A stretch of 64,000 nucleotides of DNA from Escherichia coli (GCF_048403405.1 NZ_CP183129.1), one strand, 5' to 3'. Counted from the first letter of the stretch, positions 23,896-35,495 are shown. The notes: generated from the sequence alone by a model not told the origin. Translations and numbers: made by a program.

Positions 23896-25872
23896 ATGCA
23901 GCTTAATCATATCGTTAAAAGTCTGCTAATAACGGGATTATTCACCACCAGTTCTTTACCTCTCCTCGCGGCGGAAGCTCCTAAAGACGCCACCGCAGCC
24001 ACGCAACAAGCAAACAATTTACTCTACAACCAGTTGCCGTTTGCCGATAACACTGACTTTACTGATGCCCATAAAGGTTTTATTGCCCCTATCCCTCAAG
24101 ACGTGATTAAGGGCGAACAAGGGAATGTTATCTGGGATCCACAACATTACGCTTTTATCAAAGAAGGCGATAAAGCCCCTGATACGGTGAATCCGAGTTT
24201 ATGGCGTCAGGCGCAACTGATAAATATCAGCGGGTTATTCGAAGTAACTGAAGGTGTCTATCAGATTCGCAATCTCGATCTATCAAATATGACCATCATT
24301 GAAGGCAAAGAGGGTATTACCGTCGTTGATCCCCTTGTTTCAGCAGAAACAGCCAAAGTGGGTATGGATCTCTATTACAAAAATCGCGGCAAAAAACCGG
24401 TAGTGGCGGTTATCTATACACACAGTCATGTCGATCACTACGGTGGTGTTCGTGGCGTAATTGATGAAGCTGACGTTAAATCAGGCAAAGTTAAAATCTA
24501 TGCGCCAGCCGGATTTTTGGAGGAAGCCGTTTCCGAAAACATCATGGCTGGCAATGTTATGAGCCGACGAGCCAGTTATATGTATGGCAACTTATTGAAA
24601 CCTGATGTTAAAGGCCAGGTGGGGGCTGGACTGGGAACGACTACTTCAGCAGGAACAGTCACGTTGATTGCTCCTACTAACTACATCACCAAAACCGGAC
24701 AAAAAGAAACTATTGACGGGTTGACTTATGATTTCCTGATGGCGCCAGGTTCTGAAGCGCCTTCTGAAATGCTGTGGTTTATTGAAGAAAAGAAACTGAT
24801 CGAAACCGCTGAAGATGTCACGCACACCCTTCATAACACCTATTCGCTGCGTGGGGCTAAAATTCGCCAACCGCTGCCGTGGTCAAAATATATTAATGAA
24901 GCTCTCAATTTGTGGGGTGATAAAGCCGAGATTATTCTCGCTCAACATCACTGGCCAACCTGGGGCAACGATAACGTGGTCAAACTGCTTAAAAGCCAGC
25001 GTGATTTGTATCGTTACATCAATGATCAAACTCTGCGCATGGCTAATCAAGGGATGACCCGTGATGAAATTGCCGCAAACTTTAAACTGCCCTCTTCACT
25101 GGCTAACACCTGGGCGAATCGCGGCTATTACGGTTCGGTAAGTCATGACGTGAAAGCAACTTACGTGCTTTATCTCGGCTGGTTTGATGGTAACCCCGCG
25201 ACGCTTGATGAACTGCCGCCAGAAGAAGGCGCAAAAAAATTCGTCGAGTATATGGGCGGTGCTGATGCCATTTTACAGAAAGCCAAACAGGATTATGACC
25301 AGGGTAATTTCCGCTGGGTTGCCCAAGTTGTTAGTAAGGTGGTGTTTGCCGATCCAAACAACCAGGCAGCGAGAGATCTGGAAGCTGATGCGCTTGAGCA
25401 GTTAGGCTATCAGGCTGAATCTGGGCCGTGGCGTAATTTCTATCTCACTGGTGCACAGGAATTGCGTAATGGCGTACAAAAATTACCAACACCAAATACT
25501 GCCAGCCCAGACACCGTGCGTGCGATGACGCCGGAGATGTTCTTTGATTATCTTGCCGTCCATATTAATGGTGAGAAAGCGGCAGATGCCAAAACCGTGT
25601 TGAATTTCGATTTTGGTGAAGATGGCGGCACCTATAAAGTGGAGCTTGAAAATGGTGTTCTCAATCATACCGCTGGTGTAGAGGCTTCGGATGCTGATGC
25701 CACTATCACTCTGTCTCGTGATGTATTGAACAAAATTGTACTGAAAGAAGAGACGCTGAAAGAAGCCACGGCCAAAGGAGATGTCAAAATTACTGGCAAT
25801 GAGGAAAAACTCAACGAGCTGTTAGGTTATATGGATAATTTTGAATTTTGGTTCAATATAGTGACACCATAA
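23896..25872 (+). CDS. Periplasmic alkyl/aryl-sulfatase-like protein (metallo-beta-lactamase fold, SdsA1/YjcS family)
   Basis: 658 aa; signal peptide MQLNHIVKSLLITGLFTTSSLPLLAA; MBL motif YTHSHVDHYGG; C-terminal SCP2-like region; not at this position in K-12 as I recall it. Confidence 0.8.
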   Translation: MQLNHIVKSLLITGLFTTSSLPLLAAEAPKDATAATQQANNLLYNQLPFADNTDFTDAHKGFIAPIPQDVIKGEQGNVIWDPQHYAFIKEGDKAPDTVNPSLWRQAQLINISGLFEVTEGVYQIRNLDLSNMTIIEGKEGITVVDPLVSAETAKVGMDLYYKNRGKKPVVAVIYTHSHVDHYGGVRGVIDEADVKSGKVKIYAPAGFLEEAVSENIMAGNVMSRRASYMYGNLLKPDVKGQVGAGLGTTTSAGTVTLIAPTNYITKTGQKETIDGLTYDFLMAPGSEAPSEMLWFIEEKKLIETAEDVTHTLHNTYSLRGAKIRQPLPWSKYINEALNLWGDKAEIILAQHHWPTWGNDNVVKLLKSQRDLYRYINDQTLRMANQGMTRDEIAANFKLPSSLANTWANRGYYGSVSHDVKATYVLYLGWFDGNPATLDELPPEEGAKKFVEYMGGADAILQKAKQDYDQGNFRWVAQVVSKVVFADPNNQAARDLEADALEQLGYQAESGPWRNFYLTGAQELRNGVQKLPTPNTASPDTVRAMTPEMFFDYLAVHINGEKAADAKTVLNFDFGEDGGTYKVELENGVLNHTAGVEASDADATITLSRDVLNKIVLKEETLKEATAKGDVKITGNEEKLNELLGYMDNFEFWFNIVTP

Positions 25873-25886
25873 ATTTACTGCATACC

Positions 25887-25909
25887 GGGCAGGTATCCTG
25901 CCCTTTTTT
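25887..25909 (+). terminator. Rho-independent terminator after the sulfatase gene
   Basis: gggcagg-tatc-ctgccc followed by TTTTTT, 15 nt after stop. Confidence 0.8.
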
Positions 25910-25918
25910 GGTTAAAAA

Positions 25919-27016
25919 ATGGCTGAACGAAGAAAAACGCATCACTCATGGAAAACCCGCCGCGATATGGTTATTCGCGGCATGACGATTAGTTTGCCAT
26001 GGTTTGCTTTTATCAATGTCAGTTTTGCATTGATAATTTTGCTGCGCCGTGTTCTGTTTAATGACCTTACTCCACCCTGGTTAAATGAAAAAAGCCTTAT
26101 ACATTCTATTGATATATCTGCAACGGGTATTCTGCTGATTTGCAGTGGTTTACTACTCATCCCTCGGCAAAAAACATTACCTATCCAGGTGCTATTAGTT
26201 GCCCTGAGCCTGCTATGGTCATGGTGTAGTTATCACTTTATTGCGTACTGGACGCTGCAGTTTGCTTATCCACTATGTGTATTATTAATGCTTAGTGGCG
26301 TTGTCGCACTTTATTTCCATACCCCATCATTGCTCGCATTTGTCATTCCCTTATGGTTCACCACTCCAATAGCGAGTCTTATGCTTAATCAACAGATCAA
26401 TATTCATTTTGCTGTTGTATGGTGTATTTTTTCACTGGCGCTATATGGTGGGCGACTCATTTTGTTACGTTGGTTTGAAGAAGCATGGGTACAAAACAGT
26501 TATAACAACCAGTTAATTAATCGCCTTGATGCATTAGCACATCGTGATCCTTTAACTGGGATAGCAAACCGACGTGCAATGAACAGTATCTTACACGACG
26601 CGATGGATAACGGCGGGTCATTTGCTCTTATTATGCTGGATGTCGATTTTTTTAAACGTTACAACGACACTTACGGGCATCCTGCTGGGGATCGTTGTCT
26701 AATACAAGTTGCCGACGCTCTACAGCGTTCAACTCGCCAGTCGGAGGATGTTGTTGTCCGTTATGGTGGCGAAGAGTTTGCCATCATACTTTTTAATGCA
26801 ACATTGCCGGAAGCAGAGACGGTAGCAGCCAGAGTGAAGCAAGAACTTAAACTGGCAGCTATCCCACATCAGGCATCTGCTGTTAATGCATTTGTTACGG
26901 TTAGTCAGGGGATTACCTGTTCTGCTCCCGCAAAAACGGCTGAACAAATTATTTCAGATGCCGACGCTGCGTTATACCGGGCGAAAGAAAGTGGGCGAAA
27001 TCGATGGGCTTTATAA
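25919..27016 (+). CDS. Membrane-anchored GGDEF diguanylate cyclase (multi-TM N-terminal sensor-like domain)
   Basis: 365 aa; about 6 predicted TM helices then GGDEF domain with RYGGEEF active-site motif and D-x-LTG; start codon uncertain (ATG at 25919 lies 10 nt after a terminator U-tract with no SD). Confidence 0.8.
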   Translation: MAERRKTHHSWKTRRDMVIRGMTISLPWFAFINVSFALIILLRRVLFNDLTPPWLNEKSLIHSIDISATGILLICSGLLLIPRQKTLPIQVLLVALSLLWSWCSYHFIAYWTLQFAYPLCVLLMLSGVVALYFHTPSLLAFVIPLWFTTPIASLMLNQQINIHFAVVWCIFSLALYGGRLILLRWFEEAWVQNSYNNQLINRLDALAHRDPLTGIANRRAMNSILHDAMDNGGSFALIMLDVDFFKRYNDTYGHPAGDRCLIQVADALQRSTRQSEDVVVRYGGEEFAIILFNATLPEAETVAARVKQELKLAAIPHQASAVNAFVTVSQGITCSAPAKTAEQIISDADAALYRAKESGRNRWAL

Positions 27017-27089: not shown

Positions 27090-27641
27090 CTATCTTCTTA
27101 GCGATGTCTTTCTGGTATCACATTGGATCGGTGCAATTATTTTTCCTTTAATACCCATTATGTTAAGAAATTCAGAAACAGCTGTAATCTCATTGTTTTT
27201 TTCATTCGTCTTGATCTTACAAGGAATCTGACTGTGCATTATTGAGAACACACTAATAACGTGAATCGCTCCCTTGCGACGACTCTTGTCATAAGAGTAC
27301 CGGAGCGTTTTTCCATCAATTGCAATGACGTCTTTATCATCTGAAGAATGGCAGTCAAGCATCCAGTTAATAAAGCACTCATGAAATTTTTCAGGACTGA
27401 TACAGGATACAACTCTGGCAATGGTATCGTGAACAGGAATACCATTATCAAAATCACCATATTGCTTCAAAAAATCGAGATGTGTTTCCCCAAAATCCTC
27501 TATATCTTCCCAGCCTTCTGCACCCGAAATAACGGCACAAATAGTCAACAGTAGAATATCCGATAATTTATGTTCCACTTTCCAGGCTTGTCTGTAATCG
27601 GGGATAATAGAAATATGTCCCATCAATTTTTTAAGTTCCAT
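27090..27641 (-). pseudogene. ISAs1-family (H-repeat, YhhI/YdcC-like) transposase, 3'-truncated fragment
   Basis: N-terminal about 166 aa match the H-rpt protein ([12 protein letters not shown]...[11 protein letters not shown]...IDGKTLR) then the frame diverges and stops; full-length homologs are about 378 aa. Confidence 0.8.
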
Positions 27642-27789
27642 TTTGTTCTCCTTAATTATGTAAGGAGTATTTGATCATGTATACGCAATAAAAAACAGCT
27701 TCAGGTAATGAGGAATATCTCAATTGTTAAACATAAAATGCGAATTGTCTAGTACAAAAAAGCAGCGTTACGTGATCTTTCCGTGGATC

Positions 27790-27912
27790 GTCAAATTGTT
27801 CGAGAGAAAATACCAACATGATGGATTTTACTGTAAAAGTAATGTCGTAGTTTAAAAACTCATCATCCGGTAAAGCCTTGTGGGGCGTGGGCTTTCATAC
27901 TTTTACCCTGAT
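27790..27912 (-). repeat. ISAs1/H-rpt element upstream end (copy 1 of a conserved roughly 120-bp block)
   Basis: tcaaattgttcgagagaaaataccaacatgatgg...cttgtggggcgtgggctttcat...ccctgat is about 85 percent identical to 34529..34650. Confidence 0.65.
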
Positions 27913-28226
27913 GTCTGCTATACGCCGGACACCCTTTACGTAGCATTCGGAATTCACCCGTAAATTTATCACGGCGGTATCACGAAACCTCCGGTTCTGA
28001 TGCCGCTTAGGACTAACGACACGTCAACACAGGTTCGGGTTTATTCATTTCACTGTATCTCATATAATCTGAGCACTCCCCCTGCGCTCGCTACTATGAC
28101 TCTTTACCACAGCAACCGGGGTTGTTTGGGATCGGCTTTCAACAGCAGATCCCGGTGGCTATTGCAAGTAAGTCTACTTTCCACATCAGTGTTACTGACA
28201 CAGAAAATAATGAGTTATGATCCTTG

Positions 28227-28712
28227 TCATATTTTTAATATAGCCCCATGAGCTATAGGATCAAAACCTTCTAACCATGAGGTGTTTTTATCGAATAATG
28301 CACCTGTTATATTTATATCGCCATATCTATCACATAATAAATTAGCGCCACATAAGTCAGCACCAGAAAAATTTGAATCTTTAACGTCTGCATTGCAAAA
28401 GGTTGAATTAGTTAATATAGCACCCTCAAAGTTTGCACCTATTGACCTTGAATTACTAAAGTCACTTCCAGTGAAATCTGAGTTATTAAGAATAGCGTTC
28501 ATCAGAGCCGCATTGCGAAAGACAGCATTTCTAGTTGATGTATGTTGAATCATTACATTTCTTAAATGGGAATTTTCAAATTTCGCCCCATCAAGACAAT
28601 AACCATTGAGGATGGCACGATGTAGATCCATCCCGCTAAAATCATATCCAGCAAGAGTGGTACTATCTATATCAAGAAATTTATTGGTTATTAAAAACGC
28701 GATTCTTATCAT
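28227..28712 (-). CDS. Pentapeptide-repeat protein; putative cognate immunity protein of the adjacent Rhs toxin
   Basis: 161 aa; tandem A(D/N)(L/F)xx pentapeptides ([11 protein letters not shown]..., [33 protein letters not shown]); start ATG overlaps Rhs stop (ATGA) so translationally coupled; AT-rich. Confidence 0.8.
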
Positions 28713-31700
28713 CTATTCCCCCAATCATCTAACTCCGGAAAAATTTGGCTAAACGGATATAGTGGTGCCGATAATGGACGCGTACCTGGCCGCTCAGGAG
28801 GAAGTTTATCACATAACAGACCCGCAACCATCCTGTGATTACCATTAACAATCACATTCCCATCCATATCAACCGGTGGTGCTCCACTACCATCTTCCAG
28901 CATTTGTACGTAGTGAGCTACTACGGGTACTGAGACTTTTTGTTGTACTGTCAACAAGGGACTGTTGGCCACAACCATCCTGATGTTTTCAGGTGTCGTA
29001 GGTAAACATTTAGTCTTCTCTTGACTAAAGGTATCATCCCACAATTTTGTTAAACCCATCACTGCCTGTTGTCTGTATTTATCCATGGGGTCAGCAATCA
29101 ACCAAGATGGACCTGACTGCTCTATGGAATCTTCTCCGGAGAGACCCAACGGATCTATCTTAGTAGTTGGATTCAATGGATACTGATACAGGTTCCATGC
29201 ACCTCTTAGCCCAATGGGATCCTGGGTGATATACCGCCCCTGCAACGGGTCATAGTACCGGTTGCGGTTATAGTACAGCCCCGACTCCTCATCATACTGC
29301 TGCCCCGGCAGACGGTACGGCTGTTGCAGTTGCTGCGCGCTGGTTTCGCCCAGCAGGTTTCCCCACTCGTCATACTCCCCCTGCCACGCCGTTTCCCCTT
29401 CCGGGCTGATGAGCGCCTGCGGCAGCCCCCGGTGGTCGCAGTGGTAAAGATGAAGTGTCCTCTCCGGGATGTATTCCGCCTCCATCTGGTTTTTCATCTG
29501 TTCCGCCGTCAGCCCGCACTGCTGAAGCCATGCCTCACTCTCCGCACTCACCGCACCCGCGCGCAGTTCCCGCTCCAGCCTCCCCAGCATCACCGACAGC
29601 TCCGCCGGTAGCGTCACCCCCGTGTCCTCCTGCAACACCTCCGCCAGACTCCGGTGCCGCGCCTTCGCCTGTTCACCATTCTCTGTTTCGATTCTGATGA
29701 GCGGCGTGAAGCTCCCCGGCTGGTATACCGTCTGGATACGCGTGGTGCCGGTCTGTACCGTCGTCAGCCTGTCACCGTCCCACCCGTACCAGGTCTCCTC
29801 CGGTTTACGCGACAGCGACATCCACCCCGTCAGGTCACGCTCCCGCCGCCACACCCGTTTCCCCGTCCGGCGGCCCAGCGGGTCATAGAGGTAGCGGCTC
29901 TCCACCTGTGGCTCGCCGTGCTGTATCCGCGTGTAGAACACCAGGCGGTGCTGGCTGTCGTAATGGTAGTGGTGCGTCCGCTCGTCGTGCATCCGTATCA
30001 CCCCTTCCGGGATACGGTCCGTCTTCTCCGCCAGCCTGCCGTATTCATCGTAGCGGTAGACATAGTGCGCATCTTCCGTGATGCGGTTATCCGGCCACGC
30101 CGTGAAGGTGCTGTCCGGGTGCAGTTCCGGGTCCGGCAGCCGGTTTCCTGCCGGGTCCGTCGCATACGGGATATCGATATCCAGGTTCGCCGCCGTGGTG
30201 TGAACGCCCGTCAGTCTTCCCGTGTCGCTGTAACGGTACTTCCGGCTCTCCTGCGGGCCGCTGATGCGCACCAGTTGCCCGTTATCGTTCCACGTATACT
30301 CACGGTCAAGCTGCGGAAGGTTCAGGTGCCTGCTCCGGAGCTGCCCTGTGAGGGTGTACGCCGTGGCCTGTTCGTACCCCGCTGTACTGCCCGCCCCGCC
30401 GAAGCTGCGGGCCGTCTCACGGTGCAGCCGGTCCCGCGTGTACTCGACCAGCGGCGTTCCGCCCAGCTTCATCCCCGCAAGATAACCGCTGCCATACGTC
30501 AGCCACTCCACCGGCGGCAGACCGTCCGGCTCCTGACGGGTCGCCAGCCCCTGTTCGCTGTAGACGTGCCTCGTCTCATGCTCCCACAGCATCTCCCCCG
30601 TCTCCTGGTTCTCCACCGTCTGCCGTTCGCCCGTCAGGCGGCCTTTATCGTCATAGCCGTAGTGGACCGCCACACGGTGGCCTTCGCTCAGGTGGCTGAT
30701 TTCTGTCAGCCAGCCGTGGTCGTCATACTGCCACTGCTCCGCCGGGTCGCCGTTCACCGTCCGGTGCGTGATGCGCCCGGCGTCATCGTAGTACCACTGC
30801 GTGACCTGCCCCTCATCCTCGCTGCGGATGAGCTGCCCTGTGGCGCTGTACCGGTAACGCTGTGTCCTGCCGTCAAAGCCGCGCTGCTCCGTCAGCCTGT
30901 CCACCGGGTCATACCGGAACGTGGACTGGCTGCCGTTCTCGTTGGTCAGCACGGTGATGCGCCCGGCGGCGTCATACTCCATGCTGCGCGTCAGTCCGCC
31001 CTGCGTGGTGCTGACGGCCTTTCCCCACGCATCATACTGTGTCTCACTCCGGCTGCCGTTCGGGGCAATGATAGCGGTGAGGTCGCCTGCGGCGCTGTAC
31101 TCATAACGGGTTTCACGTCCCTGCGCATCCTTCTGACTGACCAGTTGACCACGCGGGTTATAACTGCTGTAAGTGCTGATGCCTTCCTCCCGGTGAACCG
31201 CCGTCCTCTGACCGTACCGGTCGTATTCATACCGCGTCGTGTACCCTGAACAGTCCGTAAATGCCTGAAGCTGACCGTACCGGTTTCGCGTTATTCTCCG
31301 CCTCACCCCGGTTCCGTCTTCCACCGCACAGGGCAGGCCACTGCGGGAAGAATCATAAAACCAGCGCGTAATGTTACCGTTGCGCGAGACCTCTTCCGCC
31401 AGCCTGCCCTGACGGTCATATTTCCGGCTGCGGCGCAGCCCGTCCGGGTACGTCACTGACGTCAGTTGCAACTGGTTGTTGTAACCATACCGTACCGTCC
31501 TGCCGTCCGGCAGTATCACTGAAGTCAGCTTTCCCGACGCCATATGCAGCCGGTACTCCGTCCGCCGTCCCGCCGCATCCGTCTGCGCCTTCAGCCTCCC
31601 CGCCTCATCATACTCGCTGCGGGTGATGCTCCCGTCCCCATACTCCTTCTTCACCACCCGCTTCAGGCCGCCCTCGCCCTCCGTGTACAGCACCTCCCGC

Positions 31701-32920
31701 CGGTTCAGGCTGTCCGTGATGGTCACGCGGTCCTGCCCGTACTCAAAGCGGTAGTCCAGCCCCTCCGGGTTGACCTGCTCCGTCACCCGACCGGTATCAT
31801 CATACCGGTAGCGGCTCTCCGGCCTCCCCGCATAATGGTGCGCCACCATCCGCCCGGCGTGCTCCGCATCATAAGTAAACCCGCGCACCTGCGTCCCGCT
31901 GCGGTCATACACCGCCCGCAGTTCTCCGCTGGCCGTGTACGTGTAGCGCGCCAGCGGCGCAGTCGGCAGTTCATCCGGGTATGCCGGGTCGTGTGTCAGC
32001 CATACCGCCTCCAGCCGGATACCGTTATCGGCACCGTACTCTGTACCGGTGGGCAGCGTGTCGGGGAAAAACTGAGAAGAGGAAACAGAACGGGGACTGG
32101 CCGGAGAAGATAAAGAAGACTCGCGCTGTTTACGGAAGGCTTTCGCCCGCTGCGCCTGTGTGGTCAGCGCCAGATGAAAACGGCGGCCCGCGCCGTCCGT
32201 CACCCCCGTCACCGCGCCCGCCGCTTCCCCCTCTGCCGCCCGGTGGAAGGCCAGCGTCCGCCCGAAGCCGTCCACCACGCCCGTCAGCACCCGGTATGCG
32301 GGCGGCTCCGGCGGCAGCACCTCGTCCGCCTCCGGCACCCGCTCCGGCCAGCCGAGTATCCACCACGGCCCCTGAAGGCTGTTTGTCGCCAGGTACACAT
32401 GCGGGCTTAAGCGGAGACTCTCCGGCAGCACCTGCCAGAGCGCGCTTAGCGGCTGCGAACTGTGCTGCTCCGCCACCCCGCCCCTTGCCAGCCAGAACGA
32501 CTCGCTGCGGCTGTAGCTTATCTCGCCGGGAAACAGCGGCTCAAAGTGAATGCTCCTGCCGCCACTGTCGTTGAGTATCAGTTCCCGCTCATGAACCTGT
32601 AAGCGGATATCGAAGGGCGCTTTCCAGCCGGGACCAAACACCCCCACCGGCGCGGGTGTCCTGGTCCGGTAGCTGCTGTAGGCGCGGGAAAGAATAAACG
32701 GCAACGGGCCGGGCAGCGCAAGATCCGTCTCGCCCGGCAGCACCTTCGCACCCAGTAGCGGGTTCACCGGGTTACCCTTCTGCTCCTCCACCGGGCTGTT
32801 GGGACACACCGAGCAGGCCACTCCCGTCGGCGCACCTATCAGCACCCCCGCTGAACCCTGCACAATATCCAGTCCCTTGCGGGTCATATCGCCCTGTCGC
32901 GCCGCCGGTTTTCCGCTCAT
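28709..32920 (-). CDS. Rhs-family polymorphic toxin (PAAR-containing N-terminus, YD-repeat shell, DPLGL-delimited variable C-terminal toxin tip)
   Basis: 1403 aa; N-terminal [13 protein letters not shown]...[12 protein letters not shown]; many YD repeats ([18 protein letters not shown]...); conserved PxxxxDPLGL just before the last 143 aa; GC-rich core, AT-rich tip. Confidence 0.93.
28712..29140 (-). other. Rhs C-terminal variable toxin domain (last 143 aa), family not recognised
   Basis: Sequence after DPLGL: [10 protein letters not shown]...VVAHYVQM...[17 protein letters not shown]...ELDDWGNR; base composition drops relative to the Rhs core. Confidence 0.6.
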
Positions 32921-32939
32921 GGTTTATTCCTTAAATTAT

Positions 32940-33131
32940 TTATGGTTTTATTCTGAGTGCAATCCATACTGATTCATAACCAGTGAATAAGATTTCCCCG
33001 AATAATCTATATAAATTAGCGAAGTCCTCTTCACTAATTAACCGTAAAATCCCGTACCAATGAAATATAAAAATAACCACCCACACAAATTTATTGCAAA
33101 TATTATTTATTATTGTATATACATCATTCAC
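32940..33131 (-). CDS. Hypothetical small hydrophobic protein immediately upstream of Rhs (may be spurious)
   Basis: 63-aa ORF with GTG start in an AT-rich region; ends 17 nt before the Rhs start; no recognisable domain. Confidence 0.2.
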   Translation of the reverse strand: MNDVYTIINNICNKFVWVVIFIFHWYGILRLISEEDFANLYRLFGEILFTGYESVWIALRIKP

Positions 33132-33341
33132 TGAACGTTCTCAAACTGCATACCTTAGAACCATCAATTAAAGCCACAACAAAAAAAATCGATTACTTTA
33201 TGTCGCATGACAAATATGAATTACATATTAATCAACCTTAAAAACAATCATCTCTTATAATTAACAGCATACCATGAGAAACACAAAATCAATTTACCAT
33301 GCATACCAGGAGCATAATTAACCTCTCACCGCAGGGCGAAA

Positions 33342-34478
33342 TCATGAAGGCCCGCAGCCAGCAAGGATTAGAGAAAGGTATTCATTCTTACGTCCTGCCC
33401 GCTTTTGCTTGCGTTTAATACCCGCTTTAAAGCTATTCTCTGCGGTCAGTAAATTCATCGCGATATGTCGACAAACTGCCAGATTTTCTCCCGCTTCTCC
33501 ACGAACAATCTGGCATTCATCTTCCCGCATCCCCATATCAAGTCGCCAGTGCAGTTGATTTTCTACCGACCAGTGTGCTCGTGTTGCTTCCAGGAGTTCT
33601 TTCGCCGTAAGCGTCACCGAACTTATGTAGTAGCGAAGAATACACTTCTCTGATTTCACCGCTGTTTCTCCTTCCTGTCTGCTCGCCAGCACTATTCCTA
33701 TCGTGCTCAGCTCTGACCATTCATAAGCTAAATCACCCAGAGCGGTTAAATCATGGCTCACAATGCAGCATCGTGTATCTTCCCGTCCATGCCCTTTTTC
33801 CTGCGTGCTGTAACTGTCATACCTCTCACCCAGCCACATTGTCGGCGAGTACCCGTTATCAAACGCCTCCGCTAATTTTCCCTGATTTCCTTTCAGCGCC
33901 AGCAGGTAACCGGCTTTCTTTTTCAGAATTTCACGGGCGATTATATGCTGGCAACCCATTGCATCCAGCGTGACCAGACACCCTTTTAATTCCAGCAACT
34001 GGAGCCGTTCCGGGATCGCCGTTATCTCATTCGATTTTGCCCCTGTTTTCACCTGCCCCAAAACCAGACGATTTTCTGCGCTAAAAGCACTGACCCTATG
34101 GATCACGGCATTACGTTTCGATTTATCGTAAGTACCCCGTAATGACTTACCATCAATCGCCACAACAGAGCCTTCAGACAACGTGTGACAGTCCTTCATC
34201 TACTGGATAAAAAGGGGCTGTAATTGTTTTGCTGAAATCATTCCCATCACTCGGGCAATCGTGTGATGGGAGGGGGTGCCATTTTCAAAATCACCATACA
34301 GGCGTAACCATTCCAGATGCTCCTCACCAAAATCAGCAATTTCTTCCCATCCTTCAGCGCCACCGATAATGGCGGTGATCGTCAGAAAAAGGATATCCGC
34401 CAGGCTGTAACTGGTTTTCCAGGACTGGCGATAATCGTGAATAATTGAAATTTGATCCAAAAGGCTTAGTCCGTTCAT
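33342..34478 (-). pseudogene. ISAs1-family (H-repeat) transposase gene inactivated by a single in-frame amber codon
   Basis: ORFs 34200..34478 (92 aa) and 33342..34199 (285 aa) are in the same frame separated only by TAG at 34200..34202; together 378 codons, the length of an intact H-rpt protein; the stop sits where homologs have Trp (…FINW-MRDCH…). Confidence 0.85.
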
Positions 34479-34528
34479 GGTGTGCTATCCATCAAAAAGA
34501 AAGGATAAGATCACACTGAAATAAGATG

Positions 34529-34650
34529 GTCAAATTGATCGAAAAAAAGATCAACATGATGGGTTTTACGATAAAAGTAATGTCGCGATTTAAAAATTCA
34601 TCATTCACCAAAGTCTTGTGGGGCGCGGGCTTTCATGCTTTTTCCCTGAT
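34529..34650 (-). repeat. ISAs1/H-rpt element upstream end (copy 2)
   Basis: Paired with 27790..27912 (see above). Confidence 0.65.
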
Positions 34651-34888
34651 ACGCTACCGCTCTGCCCTGATAACATGATCTGCACGGCGCTATCATATCG
34701 ACATATTTCTCTACATGCGAAAGGATGTTTTATTTTCGGATTATATTAAATTGATATTTCATATAAAAAACGAGATTACATAAATCATATAAATAATTGT
34801 ACCAACTTTAATTACCATTCATAGCAAACAAATGGATGTCCAGTTAACTACGCCAGTGATTTATTAACATTAATCTCCGGCATTATTG

Positions 34889-35495
34889 TTAAATAATGGC
34901 ATTCCTTTTTAGTATTTCTTGTAACGTTGGTATCGGACATACAGCATCAGCAATCGCACTGATATTCGCGGCATTATCTTGAAACCATTCATGCCCCGGT
35001 CCCCATATGCGCATAACGCAGAGATAAGGGTAGCTGATCGCCAAACGCATAAGGTTCAGCAGTGAGCTACGAATTCAACCAGATATAAAACGATTTTCGA
35101 TATTCAATAACATTCTTCTTTAACTGTTCGGGTGCGTCAGGAGCCCAACGCTCAGGGTAATCGGCGAAAGTGAATGTTGGATAGACATTAGCAACCAGCC
35201 AGACCAATAGCCGTTGAAACTGCTGACGTTCGGCGCGCCCAACCGGTGGCGCAAGGTCCGGGCGACGATCGAGAACCATCAATGCAATCGCCGCTGTCTC
35301 CGTCATAATCTCGTCATTTTCCAGCGCCAGTGTCGGAATCTGACACAACGGGTTCAGGGTTTTCAATAACTCGCGTGAGGTTCCCTCGTGGTCAAAACCA
35401 CTGACATCAACGAACTGATAAGGAATATCAGCCAGTGTTAGCATCAGCTCACTGATTGTAGAGCCCCATCCGGGTACGCCATACACCTTAATCAT
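34889..35495 (-). pseudogene. yncG: Glutathione S-transferase homolog, disrupted (in-frame TAG plus a frameshifting deletion)
   Basis: N-terminal 142 aa intact (MIKVYGVPGWGSTISEL...YIWLNS) then TAG at 35067..35069; the GST C-terminal region (...WGPGHEWFQDNAANISAIADAVC...) continues in another frame; total 607 nt, not a multiple of 3. Confidence 0.75.

Follow-up and report, generated by a model that had tools for sequence, protein, structure and literature searches.

Two similar blocks of DNA stand on either side of an Rhs locus in Escherichia coli (GCF_048403405.1, NZ_CP183129.1). They are very probably paralogous left ends of a single type of insertion sequence (IS), lying among nested remnants that represent ordinary mobile-element debris. 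Upstream of the Rhs gene is a complete but dead ISAs1-family element (33332-34648, here called B-type), with block B in its left end. On the other side, past the immunity gene, there would be a stack made of a group II intron piece, then the block A stub, and then the first 695 bp of ISEc1, with the left terminus of ISEc1 joined directly to the stub. We infer an order of nesting in which an H-repeat (H-rpt) would first have been entered by a group II intron, a B-type element would then have inserted into the intron, and ISEc1 would have inserted into that B-type element, 127 nt from its end; deletions would finally have trimmed both sides. The features are collected in Table 1, with positions in the window, which is the whole 64,000-nucleotide stretch of DNA that was analyzed.

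Table 1. Features of the Rhs locus and of the mobile-element remnants around it, by position in the window.
Feature	Position	Strand	Basis
ISEc1 (classic H-rpt) 5' fragment, positions 1-695 of about 1291 (copy A)	27091..27785	-	90-95% identity to ISEc1 copies
Block A, probable solo 125-nt left-end stub of a second, diverged B-type element	27786..27910	-	83.5% to block B; ISEc1 similarity ends at 27785
Group II intron internal fragment, ~intron positions 86-341	27915..28158	-	Rfam RF01999; L008 homologue
Pentapeptide-repeat protein, 161 aa, presumed to confer immunity to the Rhs C-terminal toxin	28227..28712	-	PF00805, PF13599
Full-length Rhs core protein, 1403 aa, rhsE position, variable C-terminal tip	28709..32920	-	NF041261, PF05593, PF20148, PF03527
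Complete 1317-bp ISAs1-family element (B-type)	33332..34648	-	TIRs, PF13808 + PF01609, NF033564
B-type transposase frame, 378 codons, pseudogene	33342..34478	-	Two contiguous ORFs in one frame; RefSeq
B-type left end, inner part	34476..34524	-	Alignments with relatives
Block B, outer 124 nt of the B-type left end	34525..34648	-	Repeat/BLAST alignment; similarity to relatives starts at CAGGG

Similarity between the two blocks is far beyond chance. In a MAFFT alignment of both (27786-27912 and 34525-34650), 105 of 127 columns are identical (~83%), and local BLAST gives 83.5% identity over 127 nt (E 4e-34), which corresponds to a divergence of about 16% (16.5%). The pair had earlier been placed at 27790..27912 and 34529..34650, where 103 of 123 columns are invariant (~84%), and the repeat finder extends it to the longer coordinates (families D1 and D12). 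The AT dinucleotides at 27911-27912 and 34649-34650 are flanking DNA and fall outside the blocks. On the minus strand, each block is located upstream of an ISAs1-type reading frame with PF13808 and PF01609 domains; the distance from its inner edge to the ATG of that frame is 47 nt for block B (ATG at 34478) and 145 nt for block A (ATG at 27641). The two frames are co-oriented, with the Rhs core gene (28709-32920) and the pentapeptide-repeat gene (28227-28712) between them. A previous reading made from the window's sequence alone (the sequence-only reading) had described blocks of ~85% identity upstream of H-rpt frames, as well as same-orientation H-repeat frames that bracket Rhs and a putative immunity gene; the alignments agree with the first description and the gene order with the second. 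Outside the blocks, local BLAST detects DNA similarity between the copies in just one place, over 180 nt of coding sequence with 67% identity.

The locus is of the rhsE type and lies between a sulfatase/GGDEF island and yncG-ansP. Its Rhs core protein matched NF041261 (RHS_core) with 2513 bits, and TIGR03696 was also matched. The gene for the 161-aa protein overlaps the Rhs stop codon, and 28227-32920 fits a predicted Rhs toxin-immunity module.

Members of the ISAs1 family are recognized by a length of ~1.2-1.35 kb, terminal inverted repeats (TIRs), and a direct target-site duplication of 8-10 bp. With 1317 bp, the B-type element falls within this length range and is bounded by TIRs (33332-33365 pairs with 34615-34648 over 34 nt, 76% complementary), the left one of which (34615-34648) is included in block B. 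Its transposase scored 386.7 bits against NF033564 (cut-off 70), with E values of 2.8e-28 for PF13808, the N-terminal domain typical of the family, and 1.7e-22 for the DDE domain PF01609. One in-frame TAG (34200-34202, W to stop) interrupts the frame, which RefSeq labels "ISAs1 family transposase, internal stop"; the element has no specific name in the RefSeq annotation. The inner part of the left end (34476..34524), which is absent from copy A, has an invariant dyad (GTGATCTTATCC...GGATAGCACAC) immediately 5' of the ATG. A promoter scan of 34400-34720 detected no minus-strand sigma-70 consensus, and we do not claim a promoter for the transposase. The element is not flanked by a clean target duplication of 8-10 bp (flanks GTAGCGTAT vs CGGTGAGAG). 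Old or recombined copies can be expected to lack one, and its absence argues against recent simple insertion, not against membership of the ISAs1 family. A search for an empty site found none.

Of 5,426 complete E. coli genomes, 145 have the B-type element, each as a single copy and at no locus but this one. The nearest relatives of the transposase are proteins 76-83% identical to it. Seven relatives and a Tolumonas genome share the left end (~170 nt), which starts with CAGGG and is preceded by unrelated DNA. This common start, together with the left inverted repeat inside block B, supports the earlier assignment of the blocks to ISAs1-family end sequences. There was no close relative in the plasmid collection, where the best matches were partial and 65-75% identical. 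Among 100,044 species representative genomes, the exact block pattern had no match and a looser pattern had seven; of these seven, only the Tolumonas genome was inspected, and it was confirmed as a B-type relative.

H-rpts are found beside Rhs C-terminal tips, and their transposition was not observed (PMC3032704). In the literature on H-rpt, ISAs1, dgcX, and group II introns in Rhs, our searches found just one general description, which is in the E. coli W genome paper. A full ISEc1 was defined in locus L005 (1290-1291 bp, bounded by CAGGG and CCCTG). Copy A occupies the positional counterpart of K-12 ydcC, downstream of rhsE, and is 90-95% identical to ydcC, yhhI, ybfD, and other ISEc1 copies across E. 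coli (90-92% to K-12 ydcC and to the ISEc1 copies of loci L005 and L007, with 91% for ydcC and the L005 copy). It has neither a right terminal repeat nor the full ~1291 bp, and similarity stops at 27091, which is element position 695. Its truncated frame (27090-27641) is described in RefSeq as "incomplete, missing C-terminus." Copy A is a fragment of an ISEc1 member and not a complete member. Copy A is a mosaic: identity to the full L005 ISEc1 is 97-98% over the first 300 nt, but over the last 200 nt identity to other ISEc1 copies drops to ~79%.

The sequence-only reading had further proposed that recombination between the copies could delete the toxin locus. The blocks are direct repeats 6.7 kb apart in a locus that is plainly unstable in other ways, and they might serve as a deletion substrate whose products are rare or counter-selected and so missing from finished genomes; we consider this very unlikely. 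A synthetic query of the predicted hybrid A/B junction found it in 0 of 5,426 complete E. coli genomes, a survey that could miss rare or transient deletion products, and in 0 of 6 metagenome junction matches. The minimal efficient homology for RecA-dependent recombination in E. coli is about 20-30 bp of uninterrupted identity. The longest exact run between block A and block B is 14 nt (MAFFT), which with the ~16% divergence would make them a poor substrate for RecA-dependent deletion; measured against these published threshold values, they are apparently too short and too diverged for efficient homologous recombination. A block occurs in 145 of the 5,426 genomes, in two places in each of all but three. 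Strain U1, the sole strain of this locus type without the Rhs gene, has kept both blocks, and a single IS1 replaces 28114-34427. The suggested survey for strains lacking the bracketed segment therefore yielded a loss through IS1 and no block-to-block deletion. In strain NMBU_W05E18, a rearrangement is bounded by IS1 copies, and in strain JNEC-KY178 the locus is connected to another vgrG-rhs locus by an ISEc1 x ISEc1 junction. Loss and rearrangement of the Rhs gene in this lineage run via IS1 and via recombination of near-identical full-length ISEc1 copies with each other.

The ISEc1-block A junction (AATTTGACGATC/CACGGAAAGATCACG) is present in all 144 genomes that have block A at >=99% identity. 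Two strains, GMF065 and KE55, have a full ISEc1 next to block B, and it meets the block at precisely the nucleotide where ISEc1 meets block A. The junction follows ...AATTTGAC[C/G]ATC in both blocks, at position 127/128 of the B-type element, and the site is 5-6 nt from the invariant dyad (GTGATCTTATCC...GGATAAnTCAC), the arms of which resemble the ISEc1 terminus. The block of GMF065 and KE55 is of the resident type (B) right up to the junction, which is a recent event in these strains. Gene conversion from site A was considered for the GMF065 junction and rejected, as the block remains B-type to the last 3 nt and the inserted ISEc1, unlike the truncated copy A, is full-length. We tentatively suggest, as a possibility that may well prove wrong, that ISEc1 prefers an insertion point in the B-type left end, with a candidate site after ...TTGACCATC. 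An ISEc1 at the junction separates the B-type transposase gene from its conserved upstream region. If the preference is real, insertion would be targeted to a terminus-like sequence and one IS would disable a relative. No common target motif was seen at the other ISEc1 left flanks (loci L002, L007, L008, and L018), and the metagenomes contained no further block-ISEc1 junctions, all six of six matches being the E. coli A junction.

The recurrent junction could also be read as the trace of a chimeric mobile unit, a 1417-bp composite of block and ISEc1 with a B-type left repeat and an ISEc1 right repeat, which moved to both sites. Such a unit would account for the identical junction nucleotide at site A and at site B (GMF065, KE55), and the two repeats look closely alike by eye, the right end of ISEc1 being nearer to the B-type ends than its left end is. 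However, the GMF065 block is 99% identical to resident block B up to the junction and has the same yncG flank, so the block was not brought in with ISEc1. Nor were more copies of the composite found in E. coli, the species representatives, or the metagenomes beyond the A junction, and we hold this explanation to be highly improbable.

Paralogous B-type ends also have to be weighed against the explanation offered by the sequence-only reading, in which each block is the native 5' end of the adjoining frame and the two frames are diverged copies of one H-repeat. The blocks are clearly homologous and are placed upstream of co-oriented ISAs1-type frames, but the frame next to block A belongs to an ISEc1 with a left end of its own, and this explanation has an even slimmer chance of being correct. 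The left inverted repeat of copy A at 27765-27785 (CACGGAAAGATCACGTAACGC) is one base off that of ISEc1 (CAGGGAAAGATCAC...), and in megablast searches the ISEc1 similarity in thousands of genomes spans 27202 to ~27785 and ends where block A begins; block A would therefore come from another type of element. The ISEc1 copies of K-12, Nissle, and locus L007 are without the block. The coding parts of the two frames are 55-67% identical and the blocks are 83.5% identical, a disparity that would arise because block A belongs to the B-type and the neighboring frame to ISEc1. Block A is probably the leftover of a second copy of the B-type element and not part of the adjoining H-repeat.

Between the intron fragment and the outer end of block A there are only 2-3 nt. 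The fragment is a domain 1-4 segment that scored 48 bits against RF01999 (gathering score 36). Its homologue in locus L008 is a full-length intron, with ltrA and domains 5/6, inserted inside the left inverted repeat of ISEc1; the fragment matches the 5' part of this intron with 84.8% identity. Domains 5/6 (RF00029), which are present in the L008 homologue, were not found in the window, and there is no reverse transcriptase/maturase ORF between 27913 and 28226, whereas L008 has ltrA.

Least probable of all is that the blocks are not decaying IS ends but stay alike because each has its own role, for example as a small RNA or a regulatory site of the Rhs locus: the left end is well conserved in distant relatives and a consensus RNA fold of seven left ends has two invariant hairpins, but compensatory changes occur in 0 of 21 predicted pairs (and no structure is claimed), no reading frame is common to both blocks, a block is present in just 145 of 5,426 genomes, and conservation spans the whole left end to the ATG, as for IS transposase-binding/expression signals. 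A small RNA in the blocks was dropped as a candidate because Rfam was silent save for a weak, chance-level match to RsmY (15.8 bits).

The importance of these results is mostly for annotation, and the biology is known overall. The "H-repeat" downstream of the Rhs gene would not be a single element but a three-layer nest consisting of an intron fragment, a solo ISAs1 left end, and a truncated ISEc1. Short, diverged IS stubs of this kind should not be taken as deletion substrates. The recurrent ISEc1 junction offers a small clue to how members of the little-studied ISAs1 family choose their targets.

Each layer can be compared with known systems. Copy A has the same left terminus as the ISEc1/H-rpt copies ydcC, yhhI, and ybfD and the same place after rhsE as ydcC; unlike them, it ends after 695 bp, and its outer neighbor is an ISAs1 stub and not unique DNA. 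Group II introns reportedly reside in E. coli insertion sequences. The fragment in the window keeps 244 nt of homologous intron, but unlike the known introns it is without the 5' end, the reverse transcriptase gene, and domain 5/6, and the B-type stub cuts it off. The B-type element shares PF13808 and PF01609, NF033564, a length of ~1.3 kb, and TIRs starting with CAGGG with other ISAs1 members (Aeromonas/Tolumonas/Vibrio-type subgroup), and it differs from them in its single copy, single locus, stop codon, and lack of a clean target duplication. To our knowledge, no target specificity has been described for the ISAs1 family and no insertion experiment has been reported for any member. Insertion beside sequences that resemble inverted repeats occurs with IS30 and IS911. 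ISEc1 is like IS30 and IS911 in that it is found beside a terminus-like dyad, at one and the same nucleotide of two B-type left ends that have diverged from each other; only two such events are known for ISEc1, and in each of them a deletion has removed the right-hand junction.

H-repeats beside Rhs genes are known from older work, and here two similar blocks, A and B, bracket an Rhs core gene and its pentapeptide-repeat (presumed immunity) gene. The similarity of the blocks is real, and they are insertion-sequence end sequence. Bounded as in the sequence-only reading, which had claimed this likeness, they are identical in 103 of 123 columns. By local BLAST they are 83.5% identical over 127 nt (E 4e-34), and MAFFT gives 105 identical columns of 127. 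The adjacent reading frames are far less alike, with sliding-window identity mostly 43-70% in the coding part and a single 180-nt coding stretch at 67%. This discrepancy gave the earliest hint that the simple reading left something out.

Block B does adjoin its own frame, as had been proposed. It is the left end of a complete 1317-bp element (B-type, CAGGG...CCCTG) bounded on both sides by a 34-nt inverted repeat. The frame has 378 codons with one in-frame TAG, carries PF13808 and PF01609, and with the stop repaired scores 387 bits on the NCBIfam ISAs1 model. The nearest proteins in a large collection are 76-83% identical, and the left end (about 170 nt) is shared in full by the contigs of those relatives and by a Tolumonas genome found by DNA pattern. 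In every one of them CAGGG is preceded by unrelated DNA, so the element terminus is at 34648 in block B and 27910 in block A, and the AT just outside both blocks is flanking DNA. The element occurs in 145 of 5426 complete E. coli genomes, one copy each, at this locus only. No close relative was found among plasmids, and the exact block pattern had no match in 100,044 species representatives. It can be regarded as no more than an undescribed, inactive ISAs1-family member.

Block A was described as the 5' end of the H-repeat frame next to it; this does not hold. From 27202 to about 27785 the window matches annotated ISEc1 genes (ydcC, yhhI, ybfD) of thousands of genomes at 90-95% identity, and this similarity stops within a few bases of 27785. 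A full copy of 1290-1291 bp in strain GMF065 defines the ISEc1 left end as CAGGGAAAGATCACGTAACGC and the right end, in reverse complement, as CAGGGCAAGATTACGAAAGCCCGC. The frame beside block A has an ISEc1 left end of its own, with one base changed, and is cut at element position 695. Block A itself is a left end standing alone, from a second B-type copy that has diverged by about 16%. The two frames belong to different ISAs1 lineages and block A is a B-type stub, which explains why the blocks resemble each other more closely than the frames do. Among ISEc1 left ends aligned over their first 25 nt, CAGGGAAAGATCA is followed by either CGTAACGCTGC or TCAGAAGTTCAC.

Coordinates of features in and around the two blocks
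Feature	Window position	Strand	Remark
Sulfatase and MASE5-GGDEF genes	23896-27016		L001:2997-6117 in a comparison locus
ISEc1 fragment (copy A)	27091-27785	minus	left end at 27765-27785
Block A	27786-27912	minus	extent of repeat pair
Group II intron piece	27915-28158	minus	
Rfam RF01999 (intron domains 1-4)	28051-28159	minus	48 bits, gathering score 36
Pentapeptide-repeat gene	28227-28712	minus	161 aa
Rhs core gene	28709-32920	minus	
B-type element	33332-34648	minus	inverted repeats 33332-33365 and 34615-34648
B-type frame	33342-34478	minus	
Block B	34525-34650	minus	extent of repeat pair
yncG	34889-35495	minus	

Other functions were sought in the blocks. No Rfam family matched them, no reading frame is common to both, no consensus promoter was found on the relevant strand, and none of 21 predicted pairs of the left end showed compensatory change. 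The entire left end is conserved among relatives, which is consistent with signals for binding and expression of the element itself. Two hairpins do not vary among the B-type relatives (34476-34648, minus strand). One, AAAGCC-loop-GGCTTT, whose loop is variable, lies in the left terminal repeat; the other, GTGATCTTATCC...GGATAAnTCAC, stops directly ahead of the ATG. The alignment of these relatives showed no covariation in either hairpin.

Recombination between the blocks had been proposed as a route to loss of the Rhs/immunity pair. A synthetic junction (window 27200-27849 joined to 34588-35250) was searched against complete E. coli genomes, and in none of them does a single hybrid block link the ISEc1 fragment to the yncG flank. 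Eight genomes cover at least 80% of the junction. Strain U1 keeps both blocks, and a single 768-bp IS1 replaces 28114-34427. In GMF065 and KE55 the Rhs gene is still present, and a full ISEc1 lies within the B-type element. Five others match about 90% of the junction in two pieces; in the one inspected (L007, another lineage), ISEc1 adjoins yncG with different cargo and no block.

Three genomes have one block only, and two of these retain block A without block B. In NMBU_W05E18 the rearrangement is bounded by IS1 copies. JNEC-KY178 (L016:9344-17542) has a GMF065-type right junction. The left portion of its ISEc1, like the flank further out, derives from another vgrG-rhs locus (immunity gene, rhs, vgrG), which points to a chromosomal rearrangement through recombination between ISEc1 copies. 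Strain 2020CK-00188 lacks this Rhs locus; its one copy of the block (85.8% identity) lies in an unrelated flagellar island. In E. coli, RecA-dependent recombination is efficient only from about 20-30 bp of uninterrupted identity upwards, and it drops steeply with divergence. The longest perfect run between the blocks is 14 nt, so they are a poor substrate. The proposed deletion route is unsupported; instability of the locus stems from IS1 and full-length ISEc1 copies.

In GMF065 and KE55, ISEc1 stands in place of window 33676-34524 (L005:11294-12711 in GMF065; L006 in KE55). Its left terminus meets block B at the same nucleotide at which copy A meets block A (window 27765-27800), with the blocks 16% different. 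Site A reads AATTTGACGATC followed directly by CACGG, GMF065 reads AATTTGACCATC followed by CAGGG, and the intact B-type element reads AATTTGACCATC followed by TTATTTCAGTGTGATCTTATCC. Conversion from site A is ruled out as the source of the GMF065 junction: the block there remains resident-type as far as the junction, and the ISEc1 in it is full-length. An invariant dyad resembling the ISEc1 terminus lies a few bases away from the site. Two events at one bond, a small number, suggest that this may be a preferred ISEc1 target. A metagenome scan for further block-ISEc1 junctions returned the site A junction again and no other. In Nissle 1917 (L018:6001-6160) and in L007 (8556-8616), the ISEc1 left end meets the yncG flank 5 nt from the B-type point (window 34640-34668; GCGTATTTAAT against GCGTAT, each followed by CAGGG), so two different ISAs1 elements end at nearly one chromosomal spot.

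The intron piece lies between the immunity gene and block A and stops 2-3 nt short of the block A terminus. At 84.8% identity it matches the 5' part of a complete intron of strain MFDS1019527 (L008:3916-7145), which starts with GTGTGCCGTAGGCAC, has ltrA and domains 5/6, and is interrupted by IS2. That intron sits within an ISEc1 left repeat, between CAGGGAAAGATCATC and TTAACGCTGC; the 5' part on one side is of the TCAGAAGTTCAC variant and the 3' part on the other of the CGTAACGCTGC variant. The B-type element probably inserted into an intron already resident in an H-repeat. A piece of the same intron, 57-91 nt long, is found once in about 2,600 E. coli genomes. The 2020CK-00188 island (L002:6160-9130) holds a third B-type left end, about 170 nt long and rearranged at its outer terminus, then the first 18 nt of the group II intron. 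These are followed by genes for a peptidoglycan-binding protein and an LprI-type lysozyme inhibitor and, after them, by an ISEc1-like element. Along this island, small cargo genes are interleaved with several ISAs1 transposase genes.

The locus occupies the position of rhsE of K-12, and the 8.8-kb stretch around the blocks is 100% identical in the chromosomes of 139 complete E. coli genomes. RefSeq gives the order pptA, alkyl/aryl-sulfatase, GGDEF protein, partial ISAs1 transposase, pentapeptide-repeat protein, RHS core protein, ISAs1 transposase with internal stop, yncG pseudogene and ansP. Along the minus strand, the immunity gene is followed by 67 nt, the intron fragment, the B-type stub (125 nt), ISEc1 positions 1-695 and the GGDEF gene on the opposite strand. 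The alkyl/aryl-sulfatase and diguanylate cyclase genes lie between pptA and the truncated ISEc1. The edge of this island falls at the ISEc1 truncation point (about 27090), because in K-12 a full-length ydcC adjoins pptA directly. In this lineage the glutathione S-transferase-like yncG is a pseudogene, with a frameshift and an internal stop in its annotation; K-12 and L007 have an intact copy. The pentapeptide-repeat gene overlaps the Rhs stop codon, and its product has weak Qnr/MfpA-type similarity. Among Rhs immunity proteins such a fold is uncommon, a hint that the Rhs C-terminal tip (about residues 1261-1403) would act on DNA or on a topoisomerase. The presence of H-repeats next to Rhs genes has itself long been known (PMC3032704).
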